Below are positions 2,881-24,994 of a DNA stretch of 64,000 nt, piece after piece. The stretch is from positions 1-64,000 of IMG/VR virus record IMGVR_UViG_3300032284_001716; one strand, given 5' to 3'. Within the stretch, counting starts at the first letter, position 1. The number at the start of each line of letters is the position of its first letter. The position numbers and the translations under genes were made by a program. Below the pieces are notes generated by a model, which did not search any database, was not told the DNA's origin, and was given only the letters and a program-made list of their open reading frames with translations. The stretch comes from a virus.

Positions 2881-2970
2881 ATGGCACATCCGCATAAAAA
2901 TCGTCCTCGCAAGGGTCGTCGTAAGATTGGCTCTAAGAAGCGGAAGCAGAGGAATAAGAGGAAGAGGTGA
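2881..2970 (+). CDS. 29-aa highly basic peptide MAHPHKNRPRKGRRKIGSKKRKQRNKRKR (not in ORF track)
   Basis: AAGGAG SD 6 nt upstream of ATG; stop overlaps GTG start of next gene (GTGA). Confidence 0.75.
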   Translation: MAHPHKNRPRKGRRKIGSKKRKQRNKRKR

Positions 2971-3326
2971 GACTCTTCCTCGCAGTCATGACCATGGTAT
3001 TCCCATTGTCAGCTACCGCAGCTGATATGAAAAGGGAATACCATGGCATTGCTTCTTGGTACCAGAGTGGGCATAAGACTGCAAGTGGTCAAAAATTCAA
3101 TGCTCATAAGTATTCTGTGGCACACAAGAATCTACCATTCGGTACTATGTTGCGTTTGACTAACATAAAGACTGGTGCCACGATCGACGCGGTCGTCAAC
3201 GATAGAGGGCCGTTTAAGAAGGATCGAGAGCTTGACGTATCAAAGGCTGGTGCAATATCTCTAGGGTTCTTCCATAGTGGTACGGCAAAACTTCTTATTG
3301 AGGTATTGTCTGACCTAAAGAAATAA
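2967..3326 (+). CDS. rlpA: RlpA-family lytic transglycosylase (DPBB domain) with signal peptide
   Basis: GIASWY…TASGQKF…AHKNLPFGT…VNDRGPF…R.LDVS. Confidence 0.92.
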   Translation: MRLFLAVMTMVFPLSATAADMKREYHGIASWYQSGHKTASGQKFNAHKYSVAHKNLPFGTMLRLTNIKTGATIDAVVNDRGPFKKDRELDVSKAGAISLGFFHSGTAKLLIEVLSDLKK

Positions 3327-3338
3327 TTGGAGAATGAT

Positions 3339-4250
3339 ATGTACAAGACACTTTTAACCGCAGGGGTAATGTTTGCCGCGGTCGCGTCAACACCCGCGGC
3401 CGCAAAGCCTTTTACACTGTCTGACCTTTTTTCTAGTCCACAACCAGAGGTTCAGCAACCAGTACAGCAACCGAAGAAGGTTGTTAAGAAGCGTACTAAA
3501 AAGCAAACAAAGCAGGTTAAGGCTCCTGTTAAAGTAGCACCTGAAAATAATGCATTCGTAAAGTGTGATTCATTATTTGGTATTGGTTGTGGCATGGTGG
3601 CCGCAGCACCTACTACTGCAGCTATTACGTATGGTGTTGGTATGTCTGCCCCCTCTACATCTTCAGAGGAGATGACGTCAGCACAGTATTGGGCAGAGGA
3701 AGCTAGACGTAATCAGAAGCAGCAACCTGCTGTTGCTCCTAGACAGTCGATTGCTACAAATCTAAAGACTCGTGAGGAACGTCGCCGCGAGCTAGTTATG
3801 AATTGTAGCTGGTTTACATGTACGCCGGGTTATGTAGAACCGGTGATGGAAGCCAAGAAGTGGGAAGGCAAGACTGCTAAGGGTAATAAGCGCGAGCTTC
3901 AAGCCCTATTCAAAGATGGTAAGGTTCCACCTATTGATCCAGCACGTATCCCATGGTGTGCTGCATTTGCGAATGCCATCCTATCAAGAGCTGGTTTCGA
4001 AACAACAGGCAGTCTACAAGCTAGAAGCTTCCTTCACTGGGGTACAAAGACAAAAGATCCCAAAGAAGGGGATATTGTTGTTCTAGCACGAGGCCACAAT
4101 GGTTGGTCAGGGCATGTTGGATTCTTCCAGGGCTTCGAAGATTTCGAAGGTGTTAAGTATGTTAAGGTACTTGCGGGTAATACGGACAAGGCAGTTCAGG
4201 TCGGCTATTTCCCAGTGAGTAAAGTTCTTGGATATAGAACAGCAGCCTAA
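3339..4250 (+). CDS. Exported TIGR02594/NlpC-P60-like peptidoglycan hydrolase
   Basis: Signal peptide; C-terminal PWCAAF…ARSFLHWG…GDIVV…GHVGF…VLAGN (Cys/His dyad). Confidence 0.85.
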   Translation: MYKTLLTAGVMFAAVASTPAAAKPFTLSDLFSSPQPEVQQPVQQPKKVVKKRTKKQTKQVKAPVKVAPENNAFVKCDSLFGIGCGMVAAAPTTAAITYGVGMSAPSTSSEEMTSAQYWAEEARRNQKQQPAVAPRQSIATNLKTREERRRELVMNCSWFTCTPGYVEPVMEAKKWEGKTAKGNKRELQALFKDGKVPPIDPARIPWCAAFANAILSRAGFETTGSLQARSFLHWGTKTKDPKEGDIVVLARGHNGWSGHVGFFQGFEDFEGVKYVKVLAGNTDKAVQVGYFPVSKVLGYRTAA

Positions 4251-4279: not shown

Positions 4280-4311
4280 ACGGGCAGTATGTTATTCTCG
4301 ATACTGCCCGT
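4280..4311 (+). promoter_or_regulatory. 11-bp stem hairpin in intergenic leader
   Basis: ACGGGCAGTAT-N10-ATACTGCCCGT perfect inverted repeat, no U tract. Confidence 0.5.
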
Positions 4312-4372
4312 GATCAAATCTTACTGTTAACAATTGAGAAAAAAGTTTGCTTGTTTATCATGGAGATTTTGA

Positions 4373-4534
4373 ATGGCAGAGGTCGACCTAGTAAAGGTTG
4401 AGCTCGAGTGGTATAAACAAATCCTCGAGCATATCAATAAAGTTCTATCTAATCCGCAAATGACCAATGATGAAAAGGTCAGTTCAGCCGCGTGGCTTGT
4501 CAAACAGTTGAAGAAGAGTGATCGTGATGACTGA
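4373..4534 (+). CDS. Hypothetical protein, 53 aa (not in ORF track)
   Basis: GGAG SD; MAEVDLVKVELEWYKQILEH…; stop overlaps clpP start. Confidence 0.65.
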   Translation: MAEVDLVKVELEWYKQILEHINKVLSNPQMTNDEKVSSAAWLVKQLKKSDRDD

Positions 4535-5087
4535 TAAGAGTGATAAGAAGACTGAGATTCCGAGCATCGATGAACATCACTACTATATGTTTACTAAGGA
4601 GTTTGATGCTGACTCATCGTCTGATGCTATAGAGTTTATCCTAGAACGAAATCTTATGAAGATCAAGCCGAAGATGATGAAGATGATCATTAACTCGCCG
4701 GGTGGTGAGATTGCGGCTGCCTTCGCGCTCATCGATACAATGAAAGGGTCACGCGTGCCCATCTATACGTACGGGCTTGGTGAGATCGCCTCCTGCGGTC
4801 TTATGACGTTTATCGCCGGTGAAAAGGGTCATCGCTACATCACCCGTAATACTGCCATCCTCTCACATCAGTATAGCTGGGGATCCTTTGGTAAGGATCA
4901 TGAGCTCATGGCTCGTGTGAAGGAATTTAACAACACACATGCACGAATCCTCGAGCACTATAAGAAGTGCACAGGACTTTCCGAGAAAGATGTTAAGAAG
5001 TTCCTTCTTCCTCCTGAGGACGTGTGGCTGACGGCTAAAGAAGCTGTTAAGTATGGTATCGCTGACGAAGTGGTGGATTTTTACTGA
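4527..5087 (+). CDS. clpP: ClpP-family protease proteolytic subunit
   Basis: INSPGG, IASCG (Ser), SHQ (His), EDVWLTAKEAVKYGIAD (Asp). Confidence 0.95.
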   Translation: MTDKSDKKTEIPSIDEHHYYMFTKEFDADSSSDAIEFILERNLMKIKPKMMKMIINSPGGEIAAAFALIDTMKGSRVPIYTYGLGEIASCGLMTFIAGEKGHRYITRNTAILSHQYSWGSFGKDHELMARVKEFNNTHARILEHYKKCTGLSEKDVKKFLLPPEDVWLTAKEAVKYGIADEVVDFY

Positions 5088-5242
5088 TGTGGAGACTCTG
5101 GGCAAAAGCGCTTGGGGAAAAGGCGTCTGACGAAGACAAAGAGGCTGATCGTGTTGCTATCATTAGGACACTGATAATTATCAGCTACATCACAACAAAT
5201 TTGTTTATCGTAGCAGGTGTGATTAGGCATTGGAATGGGTAA
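5087..5242 (+). CDS. Small membrane protein, 51 aa, of the MWRLWAKALG type seen in T4-like phages
   Basis: TGATG overlap with clpP; MWRLWAKALGEKA…IVAGVIRHW; one TM helix. Confidence 0.75.
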   Translation: MWRLWAKALGEKASDEDKEADRVAIIRTLIIISYITTNLFIVAGVIRHWNG

Positions 5243-5468
5243 TAAATATAATTGGATTTTTTGGATGGAATGGTTATCAACCGCAGTGCTTATCTACGGT
5301 TGTGTAATGAATGCATTTAACATATATCCACTCAATATCTACCTATGTCTACTTGGTAATTTCGGTTGGGCCGTTGTTGCCTGGCAATGGCGTAAGTGGT
5401 CATTATTAGTCATCCAGGGTGTAGTGTCCGTTATCTACATATTTGGTGTTGCCGCGGTCCAAATGTAA
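5235..5468 (+). CDS. Small 3-TM membrane protein
   Basis: Three hydrophobic segments; N(I)YPLN motif. Confidence 0.7.
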   Translation: MGNKYNWIFWMEWLSTAVLIYGCVMNAFNIYPLNIYLCLLGNFGWAVVAWQWRKWSLLVIQGVVSVIYIFGVAAVQM

Positions 5469-6188
5469 ATGTTAAAAACAAAAGTTGAACACTTCTTTGG
5501 TTCTCAAGAGAGGCATGATCTGCAGATGGTGAAGTTGAGTCTTGATATTGATAATCTGGTAGAGCGTGAAGCTCTTGAGAATGGTTGGTTGATTGCTAAT
5601 GAACAGTGGTATCAGTGCCGCAGCGTTAGAATCAACATCGAAGAGTATACAGATAAATCAAAAGAACCAAAGATGCCTAAAACTCTGACATTCGAGTTCT
5701 TCTGGCGCTCACAGATTGATGATGATAACCGTGATCATATCAAAACGGTATTCAAACAGTTCTGTGAGTATAAAGGGTTCGACGATCAAGCATTTGACGT
5801 CTTCAAGGACTGGGATCGATCTGCATGGATTATCGTCTATGATGAGGGTGTTCCTGTTGCATTTACAAAGTTCATCAGATACGACAGTGATGTAGAGAGC
5901 CAGTTCACTGCATGGAACTATCATAAGCCAAAACTCTCTATCGGCAAAGCTCTCATCTGGTATGAGACTATCATTGCTACAGAGTTTATGGGTTCTGACA
6001 AGTACCTCTATATTGGTCAGGGATATGAAGAAGGTAGTGCGTACAAGGCTGACATTCCTGGCTTTGAGTGGTGGACCGGATCAGAATGGTCTAAAGATCG
6101 CGAAGAGTATAAAGCATTGTGTGCGCGTGATAGCTCTATAAATAGTCTACAAGAGTTGTCCAAGGTATACAATAATGGCGATCGGTAA
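5469..6188 (+). CDS. Putative aminoacyl-tRNA-protein transferase (ATE/Bpt-like GNAT)
   Basis: N-terminal GW…WYQCRSVRI; C-terminal KLSIGK…YE…KYLYIGQGY…AYKADIPGFEWW resembles the ATE_C SLG…Y.YLGY…YK pattern. Confidence 0.6.
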   Translation: MLKTKVEHFFGSQERHDLQMVKLSLDIDNLVEREALENGWLIANEQWYQCRSVRINIEEYTDKSKEPKMPKTLTFEFFWRSQIDDDNRDHIKTVFKQFCEYKGFDDQAFDVFKDWDRSAWIIVYDEGVPVAFTKFIRYDSDVESQFTAWNYHKPKLSIGKALIWYETIIATEFMGSDKYLYIGQGYEEGSAYKADIPGFEWWTGSEWSKDREEYKALCARDSSINSLQELSKVYNNGDR

Positions 6189-7416
6189 ACACCCATCTGG
6201 TAAGAGAACACGTCAGCGCCCTGTCCTCAGCGCTAAAGAGTTGGCTAAGGTCACTAATGACCCTGCCTTCCGTGCCCGTATGGCAAAAATCAATACTATT
6301 CCAATTATCAGAACATTTGATATTCCATATGTTGCTGGTTACTCGCAAGATGGTAAGCGTGTCTACTTTGACCGTCATTTTGATACAAAGTTTGATGGCA
6401 AGGACATCACAAACTTCATTCGTATCCACGAGGTTGTTGAGAAGTTCCTCCTAGATACACAGCATATGAAGTACCAACAGGCGCATCACTACGCTCTTCA
6501 CTTTGAGCGTGCAGCTGTTGAGAAGGCTGGTATTAACTGGAATAAGTATTGTGATCACATCGATCCATACATCAAGAAGATTGGCCATGAATCTATCACA
6601 AAAGTTCCTAAGGACTTAGATGATGAGCCATACGCCGATGAGAAAGATAAGAAGATCCTAAAGTCCCTTATGCAAAAGGAGGGTCGTAAGTCCATCAAGG
6701 AAGAGATTCTTAATGAGACGAAGATCAGCCTTGAGTATCATGAGATTTTGAATCCTGCACTGTGGGATGATGTACGACTAAAGCCGGATGTTAAGAAGAA
6801 GTTGCTGAACTTCGGTTACGCGTGGGCAGACTTTGCAAAGATTCCACGTGACATGATTCAAGATATTACCATGATCGGTGGTAATGCAAACTACAACTAC
6901 ACATCAAAGTCTGATATTGATGTGCATCTAATTATCGACAGGGATGCCTTCGCATCTGGTGCAAGTAGAGAGATCATCGATGAGTATCTACAGGATAAGA
7001 AGCTGCTCTGGACCCTCACGCATAAAATTAGTGTACTCGGCTACGCGATTGAGCCCTACGCCCAACACAGCGAAGACAAACCTGCCGCCAACCAGGGGGT
7101 GTATTCACTCCTCCACAGTAGATGGTTACAATTCCCTAATCGCGGAAGCTATAACTGGAAAAACGATCCAGCGCTTAAGCGAAAGGTGATGTTCTACAAG
7201 AAGTCCATTGACGAGATTATCAAGAACAAGATGGGTGGAGACGCCGTCAAGGACATGAAGCGAAAGATAAGAGAGATGCGAAATGCATCCATCGCCAGAG
7301 GTGGTGAGTTCAGCTTCGAAAATCTTGTGTTCAAAGAACTACGCAACCGCGGTTATCTAGACAGGATGAATCGCTACGAACAGTCCTTAAAGGATCAGGC
7401 GTTGAGCTTGAAATAA
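6175..7416 (+). CDS. Two-domain protein: HExxE domain + Pol-beta-superfamily nucleotidyltransferase
   Basis: C-half IGGNANYNYTSKSDIDVH (hG[GS]x8-10DhDh) and GEFSFENLVFKELR; N-half YVAGYS…HEVVE…AH. Confidence 0.75.
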   Translation: MAIGKHPSGKRTRQRPVLSAKELAKVTNDPAFRARMAKINTIPIIRTFDIPYVAGYSQDGKRVYFDRHFDTKFDGKDITNFIRIHEVVEKFLLDTQHMKYQQAHHYALHFERAAVEKAGINWNKYCDHIDPYIKKIGHESITKVPKDLDDEPYADEKDKKILKSLMQKEGRKSIKEEILNETKISLEYHEILNPALWDDVRLKPDVKKKLLNFGYAWADFAKIPRDMIQDITMIGGNANYNYTSKSDIDVHLIIDRDAFASGASREIIDEYLQDKKLLWTLTHKISVLGYAIEPYAQHSEDKPAANQGVYSLLHSRWLQFPNRGSYNWKNDPALKRKVMFYKKSIDEIIKNKMGGDAVKDMKRKIREMRNASIARGGEFSFENLVFKELRNRGYLDRMNRYEQSLKDQALSLK

Positions 7417-10046: not shown

Positions 10047-10864
10047 TGAGTATTATCTTTTCTGATTTCGATCAGAGCTCTGAGATGTCGCAAAAGGCTC
10101 TTGAGGCCAAACGTGTTAATGGACCTGAGTACTGGCCTACTATGCGTGAGGTGTTTGCTCATGATGCTGAGACGCTTCCTTTCCCACGTTTTCGTATGTG
10201 GGCATCTTGTTGGAATGTTCCACTAATCACTACTGGACGTGTTGCTCGATTCCTTGGTGCTGCATTTGATGCAGCCTATAAGGATCCTGATATTAGCTAT
10301 GCGTTGACTGAGAACTGGGTCGGTGTGCCTGAAGGCATGGAACAGAACTTTAAGGTCGCCGATGATTTTGACACTAGCATGCAGCGAGTACAGGATGTTG
10401 CACATATTGTTATCTGTGGTTTCTCTCCTGAAGAGATCCGTAATTGCAAGAGCATTGTTGAGATTGGTGGTGGTTATGGTGATATGTGTTCTGTTATCCA
10501 TGATCTAGGATTCAAGGGTAAGTACACGATCTATGACTTTCCTGAAGTTCAGAAGATTCAGAACTATTATCTGACTTCTCAGGGTATCAATGCTAACTTT
10601 GTATCTGATCCAAAGGACCTAGAACCTGCTGAACTTGTTATTGCAACATGGTCACTCAGTGAGATTCCGATCGAGTTCCGTGACACTATCATGGAGAAGA
10701 TCGTCAGCTCTGATAAATGGTTGGTAATGTATCAACAGAAGATCTTTGGCACTATCGATAATTCTGAGTACTTCAAGAAGTGGTTTGCCGATCGCAATCC
10801 TGTCTTTATGAAGCATAATGTTACCGAAGCCGATGGTGATAACACTTATATGGTGATCAAATGA
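10046..10864 (+). CDS. Putative sugar O-methyltransferase
   Basis: SAM motif VEIGGGYG, YDFPEV, ATWSLSEIP. Confidence 0.75.
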   Translation: MSIIFSDFDQSSEMSQKALEAKRVNGPEYWPTMREVFAHDAETLPFPRFRMWASCWNVPLITTGRVARFLGAAFDAAYKDPDISYALTENWVGVPEGMEQNFKVADDFDTSMQRVQDVAHIVICGFSPEEIRNCKSIVEIGGGYGDMCSVIHDLGFKGKYTIYDFPEVQKIQNYYLTSQGINANFVSDPKDLEPAELVIATWSLSEIPIEFRDTIMEKIVSSDKWLVMYQQKIFGTIDNSEYFKKWFADRNPVFMKHNVTEADGDNTYMVIK

Positions 10865-11283
10865 GGCCACAGCTTCCACTAAGAGTCGGGTTTACATGTA
10901 GCGCATTTGACTTGCTACATCCGGGTCATATTGAGATGTTGAATGAGTGTAAGACTCAAGTTGACTGGTTGATTGTTGGTTTGCACTCTGATCCAACGAT
11001 TGATAGGCCTGATACGAAGAACAAGCCTATTCAGTCCTTGTATGAACGATTCGTTCAACTTCGTGCTGTTAAGTTTGTTGACGAGATTATTCCATATGAG
11101 TCAGAGTACGACCTTATCAACATCCTTGGTATTGAACCGATCACGCACCGATTTGTAGGCGTTGAGTACAAAGATACATATGTTGTTGGACAAGACATCT
11201 GCGAGAAGCGCGGAATCAATATTGTCTACAATTCCCGTGATCATCAATATAGCTCAACAGAGCTGAGGAGCCGTTTGAAATGA
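10861..11283 (+). CDS. HIGH-class sugar-phosphate nucleotidyltransferase (TagD/HldE C-terminal-like)
   Basis: AFDLLHPGH, LIVGL, KPIQSLYER, VDEII, YSSTELR. Confidence 0.9.
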   Translation: MRPQLPLRVGFTCSAFDLLHPGHIEMLNECKTQVDWLIVGLHSDPTIDRPDTKNKPIQSLYERFVQLRAVKFVDEIIPYESEYDLINILGIEPITHRFVGVEYKDTYVVGQDICEKRGINIVYNSRDHQYSSTELRSRLK

Positions 11284-11867
11284 GTTTTAGTGACCTGTAT
11301 TTTCGTGAAGTGATTGAAATTGCTGAAGCACTCAATAAAGAAAAGGTAGAGATCCTTGCTAACACCCTCGCATCTACTCGCGACCTCAGTGAAGGACGCG
11401 TATTTATTTTGGGAGTCGGCGGTTCCGCTGGCAATGCCTCTCATATGGTCAACGATCTACGTAAGCTCTGCGGCATCGAGGCTTACTGCCCTACAGATAA
11501 CGTGTCAGAGCTTACTGCTAGAACAAATGATGAAGGCTTCGACACCGTATTTGAAGGCTATCTCAAAGTCAGCCGGCTCAACCATAGAGACACCATCTTC
11601 ATTCTATCCGTCGGCGGAGGTGATGAAGACCGGAATGTGTCAGTAGGCCTTATTAAGGCCATTAAGTATGCACGCGAAGTTGATGCTACAGTTATCGGTA
11701 TCGTAGGCAAGAATGATGGTTACACTGCTATCAAGGCTGATGCAGTTGTAGTTGTACCACAGCTTGAACCATCTCGTATCACCCCTCACTCTGAAGCGTT
11801 TCAGGCTATCATATGGCACTGTCTGGTCTCTCATCCAAAGCTACAAATCAACGCTACGAAGTGGTAA
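11280..11867 (+). CDS. gmhA: Phosphoheptose isomerase (SIS)
   Basis: GVGGSAGNASH, TARTND; SIS fold; cluster context. Confidence 0.85.
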   Translation: MSFSDLYFREVIEIAEALNKEKVEILANTLASTRDLSEGRVFILGVGGSAGNASHMVNDLRKLCGIEAYCPTDNVSELTARTNDEGFDTVFEGYLKVSRLNHRDTIFILSVGGGDEDRNVSVGLIKAIKYAREVDATVIGIVGKNDGYTAIKADAVVVVPQLEPSRITPHSEAFQAIIWHCLVSHPKLQINATKW

Positions 11868-12403
11868 AGAAGGCAATCTTCTTTGATCGAGATGGCGTGC
11901 TTAATCATCTCGTCAACCATGATGGCCAGATGACTGCACCGTGGCATATTGATGAGTTTAGATTCATCGAAGGTGCTGCGGATGCAGTTGAACTAGCTAA
12001 TGATATGGGTTACCTATCACTGGTTGTCACTAATCAACCAGATGTTTATGATGGTAAATTGTCTATTCACCACCTTAAGATGATGATGAAGATGTGCATT
12101 CAGTGGCTTAATGCTGCTGATGCACTAGTAGCTTTTGAACGTGGTTCTGCATGGTACAAACCAAACAATGGTATGTTAGAGACGTTGATTCGTGGTTATA
12201 ATATCGACCGTGGACAATCATATATAATAGGTGACAGATGGAAAGACATCGTCGCCGGTCACAAGAGCAAGTTGACCACTATCTATGTGGGTCCAGAACC
12301 CTATAGCTCCCCAGAAAAATATCAACACATATATCCAGACCATATCGCAAGCAATGTATTAGAGGCTTGCTTTCTCATAGCGGAGATGAACCCAGATGAT
12401 TAA
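11861..12403 (+). CDS. gmhB: Heptose-1,7-bisphosphate phosphatase (HAD IIIA)
   Basis: FFDRDGVLN, VTNQPD, KPNNGML, IGDRWKD. Confidence 0.88.
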   Translation: MVKKAIFFDRDGVLNHLVNHDGQMTAPWHIDEFRFIEGAADAVELANDMGYLSLVVTNQPDVYDGKLSIHHLKMMMKMCIQWLNAADALVAFERGSAWYKPNNGMLETLIRGYNIDRGQSYIIGDRWKDIVAGHKSKLTTIYVGPEPYSSPEKYQHIYPDHIASNVLEACFLIAEMNPDD

Positions 12404-24349: not shown

Positions 24350-24610
24350 ATGTTCATTGAAATCGACGAAGAGCTTATCGACCGTATCATCAAGCAGCGC
24401 CTCGAGGAGGACTGGGTCCATGCTAACAAGGAAATCATGATCCTTGAGAGTGAGGATCGCCGCGGTGAACTCAAGCCTTATCAGCGTGAGGATCTTGAGA
24501 TGTACCGTAGGTTGATTCCTGCAATGCGCGTCATGGCAACATGGCACTTCACAAAGTTTGAGCAGGAAGAAATCTTTGGTGTACAAGACGATGACGATGT
24601 GATAGAATAA
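24350..24610 (+). CDS. Hypothetical protein
   Basis: AAGGGA SD, 86 aa. Confidence 0.65.
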   Translation: MFIEIDEELIDRIIKQRLEEDWVHANKEIMILESEDRRGELKPYQREDLEMYRRLIPAMRVMATWHFTKFEQEEIFGVQDDDDVIE

Positions 24611-24616
24611 ATACAG

Positions 24617-24908
24617 TTGCAAAGGTTGTTGATGCGTAAGGAATAGACGTTCTGGACCCGGGGGCGGTACCCGGCGCCTCCACCATAGATACATCGACAC
24701 GGACTACATGGGTAAACCTTATGAATGTAAGTAAGTCCCAACCGAAACACAGCGGTGTATCTTTGATGGGGGCGAAATAGGATCGACAGGATGCAGTAAA
24801 GGTACGAGTAGACCAATGCAAACGTTAGATGCAAACGATAATGCACCTCTAGTTATGGCACTTGCTGCCTAACATGCGTCCGGGGGAACGTGGAAACAGA
24901 ATCCCCCA
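24617..24908 (+). ncRNA. ssrA: Circularly permuted (two-piece) tmRNA, alphaproteobacterial type; tag (A)ANDNAPLVMALAA
   Basis: Acceptor piece ends CCGGG-GGCGGTA-CCCGG-CGCCTCC-A-CCA (24685); 82-nt intervening segment; coding piece starts GGGGGCG (24768) giving G3-U70; tag frame 24831-24872; 3' hairpin. Outer ends approximate. Confidence 0.93.
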
Positions 24909-24917
24909 TCTATCTAC

Positions 24918-24994
24918 GGTCACTTAGCTCAGCTGGATAGAGCATCAGACTTCTAATCTGAGGGTCGATGGTTCGAGTCCATCAGTGATCGCCA
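24918..24994 (+). tRNA. tRNA-Arg(UCU)
   Basis: Acceptor GGTCACT/AGTGATC + G-CCA; TCAGA-CTTCTAA-TCTGA; GATGG-TTCGAGT-CCATC. Confidence 0.95.

Follow-up and report, generated by a model that had tools for sequence, protein, structure and literature searches.

A probable divergent relative of the aminoacyl-tRNA-protein transferases ATE1 and Bpt in large T4-like phages, and its HExxE-domain neighbour

Introduction

In the N-degron pathways of bacteria and eukaryotes, the writers are aminoacyl-tRNA-protein transferases. Here, we describe a 239-amino-acid (aa) phage protein that is probably a genuine but divergent homologue of two of these enzymes, ATE1 and Bpt, belonging to a viral subfamily, and whose partner is probably the HExxE-domain protein encoded directly downstream rather than the ClpP-like protease encoded upstream. 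The gene lies in a stretch of viral DNA of 64,000 nucleotides (nt), hereafter the window, corresponding to positions 1 to 64,000 of an IMG/VR virus record (IMGVR_UViG_3300032284_001716) that is 99.5 kb long and estimated to be 58% complete. An earlier interpretation of this region, made from its letters alone and referred to below as the sequence-only reading, had proposed a phage N-degron writer situated next to its protease. Our literature search found no phage-encoded aminoacyl-tRNA-protein transferase.

The closest described systems are Bpt, eukaryotic ATE1, and the FemX/FemAB and MprF enzymes. Bpt is a leucyl-tRNA-protein transferase for N-terminal Asp and Glu, and is listed by NCBIfam as 'arginyltransferase' (PRK01305). 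As a reference set, we used eight genuine Bpt sequences taken from a scan of proteobacterial genomes; the tally of that scan, 18/41, includes one unpublished genome (G042), from which none of the eight was drawn. Bpt and the phage protein are single polypeptides of similar size (239–254 aa for Bpt) with a shared order of motifs: GF/GW, ...R(I/V), S..(Y/F)..W(D/N), SLG, YLG, YK and (P/G)xE...W. However, the phage protein has none of the four Cys residues (C16, C60, C63 and C66) that are invariant in all eight Bpt sequences, lacks the RH...GGMD loop, and has hydrophobic residues in place of the RR of the Bpt motif GFRRSG. Moreover, Bpt is chromosomal, whereas the phage family is viral.

The eukaryotic arginyltransferase ATE1 (PDB 7wfx/7wg1, 7tif and 8tzv) is the best structural match to the phage protein, which has equivalents of its Lys304, Tyr303, Glu277 and Ser255. 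ATE1 is twice as large, and the phage protein lacks both its zinc/Fe-S Cys4 site and an equivalent of its R80. FemX/FemAB and MprF, an aminoacyl-phosphatidylglycerol synthase, have in common with the phage protein a GNAT-type core and the logic of a catalytic Lys, with Z scores of 12–13.6 in structural alignment, but they show no specific sequence-profile tie to it beyond seven weak Acetyltransf_6 matches among 37 homologues.

Results and discussion

A word-index search with the 239-aa protein recovered 94 homologues, several of them with a PF04377 match or the JGI name arginyltransferase, and an exhaustive search recovered 184 representative clusters at an E-value (E) of ≤0.001. ATE_C (PF04377) was matched by 27 of the 37 aligned homologues (best E 2.1e-10). 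A profile of the phage family reached the K. lactis and yeast ATE1 chains (E 3.5e-4), in an alignment that spans the SLG, YLG and YK motifs, and profile–profile comparison of the phage family with the eight genuine Bpt sequences using hhalign gave a probability of 97.5% (E 7.5e-12) over residues 49–213. The sequence-only reading had noted a resemblance to the ATE_C motif in the pieces SIGK, YE, YLYIG, GY and YKA. All of these lie at residues 157–194 and coincide with ATE_C motifs in the profile alignments, and the resemblance is therefore far beyond chance. The ATE/Bpt family call, which had been made by eye, likewise stands at the superfamily level, given the Pfam matches of the homologues, the Bpt and ATE1 profile comparisons, and the fold searches described below.

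An AlphaFold2 model of the 239-aa protein, built on the family alignment, had a predicted local distance difference test (pLDDT) score of 93.5. When this model was compared with the PDB using Foldseek, the top 11 rows were all ATE1, with E of about 3e-7. A VIA-align scan of 48,161 chains, which is independent of Foldseek, placed human ATE1 at rank 1 (Z 14.6, root-mean-square deviation (rmsd) 4.5, 210 residues aligned, model positions 2–223), ahead of FemX, MprF and K. lactis ATE1 (KlAte1); KlAte1 aligned over model positions 1–239 (Z 12.9, rmsd 5.3–5.4, 218–220 residues aligned). FemX, MprF and acetyl-CoA GNATs aligned to the core alone, from position 30 or 46 to position 204, and only ATE1 matches spanned the full model with its N-terminal 45 residues. 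Hence, the model has the overall fold of ATE1, an N-terminal part together with a GNAT core, and the sequence-only reading, which had named an acetyl-CoA GNAT as the best match that would speak against it, is supported on this point by an ATE1 best match.

We counted residue conservation over 204 family members and compared the conserved positions with KlAte1, in which residue roles have been described, including those of Lys304, Tyr303, R80 and Glu277 of the Arg-binding pocket (PMC9351520). K193, the counterpart of KlAte1 Lys304 and of FemX Lys305, is kept in 203 of the 204 members, and Y192, the counterpart of Tyr303, in 187; the pair also aligns with the YK pair of Bpt, which is present in 8/8 reference sequences. 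E166, equivalent to the donor-pocket Glu277 of KlAte1, is kept in 182/204, and S144 corresponds to ATE1 Ser255. L162 and L180 are hydrophobic, as in Bpt, where ATE1 has the pocket residues Ser273 and Tyr289. The donor-pocket residue of V. vulnificus Bpt is Gln189, and the eight reference Bpt sequences have Gln (four), Glu (three) or Thr (one) at the position of E166. Thus, the Glu conserved in the phage family may point to a basic donor, for example Arg, but it is not diagnostic, because three of the eight Bpt sequences also have Glu there. Other features are specific to the phage family, namely an invariant W47 and R51 and the C-terminal motif GFEWWTGSEW. The family alignment has a mean column identity of 44% and 15 invariant columns. 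Judged by these residues, the catalytic centre is intact, yet the protein departs from canonical Bpt and ATE1.

The gene neighbourhood was compared across a set of 80 related IMG/VR loci. In 60 of the 75 loci that were informative for the downstream side, a gene for an HExxE domain, homologous to the first ~160 residues of the 413-aa window protein, starts between −60 and +200 nt from the transferase gene; transferase identity in these loci is 38–64%, and the genes upstream of the transferase are many and different. We conclude that the constant partner of the transferase is most likely the downstream HExxE protein, and not ClpP.

The HExxE domain occurs in two forms: a free-standing protein of 151–193 aa in most related loci, and a long form of 400–416 aa, as in the window. 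In the long forms, and in these only, the HExxE domain is fused to a Pol-beta nucleotidyltransferase-like domain. The C-terminal domain of the 413-aa window protein matches phrog_36119 (E 1.4e-67) and has the motif GGNxNYNY...SDIDVH, and four long-form members gave weak matches to NTP_transf_2 (best E 0.0058). Within the N-terminal domain, D66, H68, H85, E86, E89, K90, H104 and E111 are invariant. The only outside similarity of this domain is a weak one to the metal domain of DtxR/IdeR: the PDB comparison gave E of 0.3, and the Pfam matches, seen in 5 of 26 members, had E of 0.0084 or weaker. His and Glu residues of the phage domain line up with the metal ligands of IdeR; at an alignment E of 0.3, we treat this as a lead only. 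We regard the HExxE domain as putatively metal-dependent. Its entries in the protein atlas are unnamed clusters only, a word-index search returned only unnamed metagenomic relatives, and single-sequence folding of the 413-aa protein gave a pLDDT of 35.9 and no usable model.

Several observations weigh against this assignment of the protein and its partner. The window protein alone has no match in Pfam (E ≤1), NCBIfam or PHROG. More Bpt-like relatives scored 35–61 bits with the NCBIfam Bpt equivalogs (NF002341–NF002347), below the curated cut-offs of 170–358 bits, and a search from one such relative (P0164) did not reach genuine Bpt. The four-Cys metal site (Zn or Fe-S) of ATE_N (PF04376) is absent, with gaps or non-Cys residues at its positions; a Cys is found at position 50 only, in 71 of the 204 family members. 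The GW of the phage family (G39 W40) aligns to the GF of Bpt GFRRSG, and positions 41 and 42 are L/I and I/P/L in the phage family as against RR in 8/8 Bpt sequences, in the part of the alignment (the R80/RR region) that is of low confidence. The region of the Bpt-invariant His117, with the GGMD loop, is deleted. In Z score, ATE1, FemX, MprF and some acetyltransferases all fall in a spread of about 2 units, so that fold alone does not separate these families. Finally, the 80 related loci include near-duplicates from the same lakes, and the locus counts therefore overstate independence.

The combined loss of the Cys cluster, the RR pair and the His117 loop would fit a protein of ATE/Bpt descent that now works as an acyl-CoA-dependent GNAT acetyltransferase, or that is catalytically dead and has a structural or regulatory role, and acetyl-CoA GNATs such as VipF and MAB_4324 reach Z scores of 12.5–13.4. 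However, 203 of the 204 members retain the Lys on which ATE1 and FemX depend, the Tyr next to it and the Glu of the pocket are likewise conserved, and the column identity and invariant columns of the family argue for strong selection on an active site. We consider this explanation highly improbable.

The loss of the pocket for acidic N-termini leaves the acceptor open, and an aminoacyl-tRNA-dependent transferase could instead act on a non-protein acceptor, either a cell-wall precursor, as FemX does, or a lipid, as MprF does. Such an activity would fit the cell-wall enzymes encoded upstream in the window, a DPBB lytic-transglycosylase-like protein and a CHAP-domain protein. FemX (Z 13.6) and MprF/L-PGS (Z 12.8–13.3) come near ATE1 in the fold comparison, and Acetyltransf_6, a FemAB-like GNAT family, is also matched by 7 of the 37 aligned homologues. 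On the other side, the sequence homology is specific to ATE_C and Bpt, as the 27 Pfam matches and the hhalign result attest, the N-terminal 45 residues are covered by ATE1 matches only, and neither upstream gene is conserved as a neighbour, with DPBB found in 17/80 loci and CHAP in 14/80. A non-protein acceptor is thus very unlikely in our view, and we continue to favour a divergent ATE1/Bpt-type transferase.

On the model of the sequence-only reading, this transferase would add Leu or Arg to N-terminal Asp or Glu, and the proteins so marked would be destroyed by the co-transcribed phage ClpP. The identification of clpP itself is secure: the 186-aa product matches Pfam CLP_protease (MEROPS S14; E 1.8e-30, 106.6 bits, cut-off 20.2 bits), and its triad is intact when aligned to solved ClpPs (Ser in IASCG, His in SHQ and Asp in PEDVW); the first ~47 residues do not align to the solved structures. 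Its identity is 50% to the ClpP of Sinorhizobium phage Phosso, 49% to that of Synechococcus phage BUCT-ZZ01 and 38% to that of Ralstonia phage RsoM2USA. Like these free-standing ClpP-like genes of large cultured phages, it is set among non-structural genes.

The top PHROG label for the ClpP-like protein is 'head maturation protease'. A role as prohead protease was considered and ruled out, because a gp21-type Peptidase_S77 is encoded in 5/5 large relatives, including one that also bears ClpP (G044).

ClpP is upstream of the transferase in 10 of the 64 loci that were informative on that side (≥2 kb of upstream sequence), and in all 10, which are close relatives, transferase identity to the window protein is at least 50%. 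Three close relatives keep the membrane proteins and have no ClpP at the site. Among 30 transferase-carrying viral records of at least 20 kb, five have any ClpP at all, which in two of the five is not linked to the transferase, and none was found in a 91%-complete relative or in a complete 338-kb relative, both of which carry the transferase. We conclude that ClpP is a lineage-specific neighbour, and that ClpP and the two membrane proteins are a variable insert of one sub-clade.

These data bear directly on the model of an N-degron writer coupled to ClpP. Consistent with that model, the ATE/Bpt homology is real, ClpP has its triad and is not the prohead protease, the genes stand in a translationally coupled chain, and the tag of the window's transfer-messenger RNA (tmRNA) ends in LAA, a classic Clp degron. 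In addition, a complete jumbo phage (G047) has both the transferase and a homologue of the N-recognin ClpS, and the two unlinked ClpPs mentioned above occur in further transferase-carrying records. However, ClpP is scarce across loci and absent from the 91%- and 100%-complete relatives, and the phages with the closest cultured-phage ClpPs, Phosso and BUCT-ZZ01, as well as RsoM2USA, have no ATE-like gene, nearby or otherwise. ClpP, which works with a Clp AAA+ unfoldase (ClpX, ClpA or ClpC) and, for N-degrons, with ClpS, cannot read N-degrons alone, and a search for ClpS over the 99.5 kb of the record, at 58% completeness, found none. Adjacency and likely co-transcription carry little functional weight, because the whole + strand block is equally tightly packed.

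Recognition of N-terminal Asp or Glu also fares poorly. In KlAte1, R80 is essential for recognition of acidic N-termini (PMC9351520). In the phage family, hydrophobic residues replace R80 and the RR of Bpt, within the low-confidence part of the alignment, and the Asp/Glu reading thereby loses its main support, although the invariant R51 might be a spatial substitute. Taken together, an N-degron writer working as a unit with the neighbouring ClpP is not borne out, and we judge the full model decidedly unlikely.

Two further observations concern proteolysis. The ClpS homologue of G047 (L095, G047:C1:329134-329367; E 1.4e-24) is encoded ~45 kb from the ATE-like gene (L077) of that phage, a 338-kb genome with terminal repeats and no ClpP. 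The window itself encodes a phage permuted tmRNA at 24544-24994 (Rfam alpha_tmRNA 111.6 bits, tmRNA_permuted 106.6 bits), directly followed by a tRNA-Arg(TCT) gene; ARAGORN gives its tag as ANDNAPLVMALAA, which ends in ...ALAA and belongs to a type that Clp proteases recognise.

If the divergent ATE1/Bpt homologue is active, it would draw on a charged tRNA for an aminoacyl group and attach this to an acceptor at a free amino group, most likely the N-terminus of a protein, and the reaction intermediate would be stabilised by K193, the counterpart of Lys304 in ATE1. Acceptor specificity would probably differ from that of ATE1 and Bpt, or be supplied in another way, because the Arg pair that reads N-terminal Asp/Glu has been lost. 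A more far-reaching proposal is a two-part phage N-terminal aminoacylation system, in which a Cys-less transferase is joined by an HExxE partner that gives acceptor choice or provides the lost metal site in trans. Such a system, in large phages of freshwater or alphaproteobacterial hosts, might place a new tag, perhaps Arg, on proteins of the host or the phage, and the tag might be readable as a degradation signal by host Aat, ClpS and ClpAP or by phage ClpP. We offer this proposal as speculation and hold it, in its entirety, to be rather unlikely.

An active transferase would allow phages to edit protein N-termini during infection, a new route to take over host proteolysis or protein function. 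At 239 aa, lacking a metal site and modelled with high confidence, the protein is also a naturally minimal version of the ATE/Bpt scaffold on which recognition of donor and acceptor could be dissected, and the fixed HExxE partner offers a concrete second component.

We confirmed 387 IMG/VR loci of the transferase family, whereas a scan of 185,579 prokaryote genomes yielded only three loci, two on short contigs of metagenome-assembled genomes and one partial. The family is essentially viral, and is confined almost wholly to large phages, most of them T4-like. A collection of cultured phages gave no match, either in a DNA search with the region or in a protein search with the 239-aa protein.

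Two other neighbourhoods recur among the related loci. In 26 of them (L027-L032, L038, L040, L046-L048 and L051-L065), a GNAT of ~149 aa (Acetyltransf_1, E 2.3e-9) is encoded directly upstream of the ATE-like gene, so that the transferase often has a second enzyme of a protein-modifying type beside it. The most divergent loci (L069-L078) have no HExxE partner; there, the transferase gene is flanked by genes for a GGACT (gamma-glutamyl cyclotransferase-like) protein and a T4 Rnl1-type RNA ligase, with two unnamed families on the opposite strand.

Genomic setting

The phage is a T4-superfamily myovirus, with strong matches for homologues of the baseplate wedge proteins gp6, gp7 and gp8. The nearest cultured relatives of gp6 are in Stenotrophomonas phage DLP_6, Caulobacter phage Cr30 and Sinorhizobium phages phiM12 and phiN3. 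An alphaproteobacterial host is suggested by the type of the tmRNA and by the relatives of the structural genes, both of which point there. Public DNA runs that contain the stretch are aquatic or lake metagenomes.

The sequence-only reading had described clpP, two small membrane-protein genes and the 239-aa gene as abutting or overlapping, and the coordinates of the open reading frames (ORFs) agree, with an unbroken + strand chain from 4373 to 7416 (Table 1). Within this chain we found no + strand terminator-like sites, and promoter-like sites were at chance level (13 found, 10.8 expected). Co-transcription of the chain is plausible on this basis. Such packing is general, in that nearly all + strand genes from position 1 to ~15100 abut or overlap their neighbours. 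The ClpP-like gene has an alternative in-frame GTG start at 4518 in addition to the ATG at 4527, and the 53-aa ORF that precedes it is conserved in only 2 of the 80 related loci.

Table 1 Features of the transferase locus, with positions numbered from the first nucleotide of the window
Feature	Position	Strand	Remarks
53-aa ORF, function unassigned	4373..4534	+	Stop overlaps ClpP ATG by 8 nt
ClpP-like serine protease subunit, 186 aa	4527..5087	+	1-nt overlap with 51-aa ORF
51-aa protein, single C-terminal hydrophobic segment	5087..5242	+	phrog_1679; 8-nt overlap with 77-aa ORF
77-aa multi-pass hydrophobic protein	5235..5468	+	Pfam DUF6552; abuts 239-aa gene
239-aa probable ATE/Bpt-superfamily transferase, Cys-less viral subfamily	5469..6188	+	14-nt overlap with 413-aa gene
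Key residues of 239-aa protein			G39 W40, W47, R51, R54, S144, E166, Y192, K193, GFEWW motif 198-202
413-aa gene	6175..7416	+	In the overlapping/abutting chain from 4373
N-terminal HExxE domain of 413-aa protein, ~170 aa	6175..6690	+	Putative metal site; conserved downstream partner (most likely)
C-terminal domain of 413-aa protein	6697..7416	+	phrog_36119; Pol-beta nucleotidyltransferase-like

Immediately before the chain, a 122-nt gap separates the CHAP-domain gene from the 53-aa ORF. This gap holds a 9-bp perfect hairpin at 4282-4309 (GGGCAGTAT ... ATACTGCCC), with no T-run behind it, and, 3′ of the hairpin, a sigma-70-like site at 4334-4361 (TTGAGA, 16-nt spacer, TATCAT). The region 2967-4250 encodes an RlpA-like DPBB protein (E 1.2e-16) and a CHAP-domain protein of 307 aa, the C-terminus of which matches a baseplate-hub/tail-lysozyme PHROG; the baseplate genes are distant, at 42–60 kb. 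Further upstream, ~2.5 kb from the transferase gene, an RNaseH-like gene (2320-2793) is flanked by tRNA-Leu(TAA) at 2226-2303 and tRNA-Met(CAT) at 2784-2859, each of which was called by both ARAGORN and Rfam. Downstream of the chain, at 10861-12403, we noted by eye a run of sugar-nucleotide genes, comprising a cytidylyl/adenylyl-transferase-like gene, a GmhA-like isomerase and a GmhB-like phosphatase.

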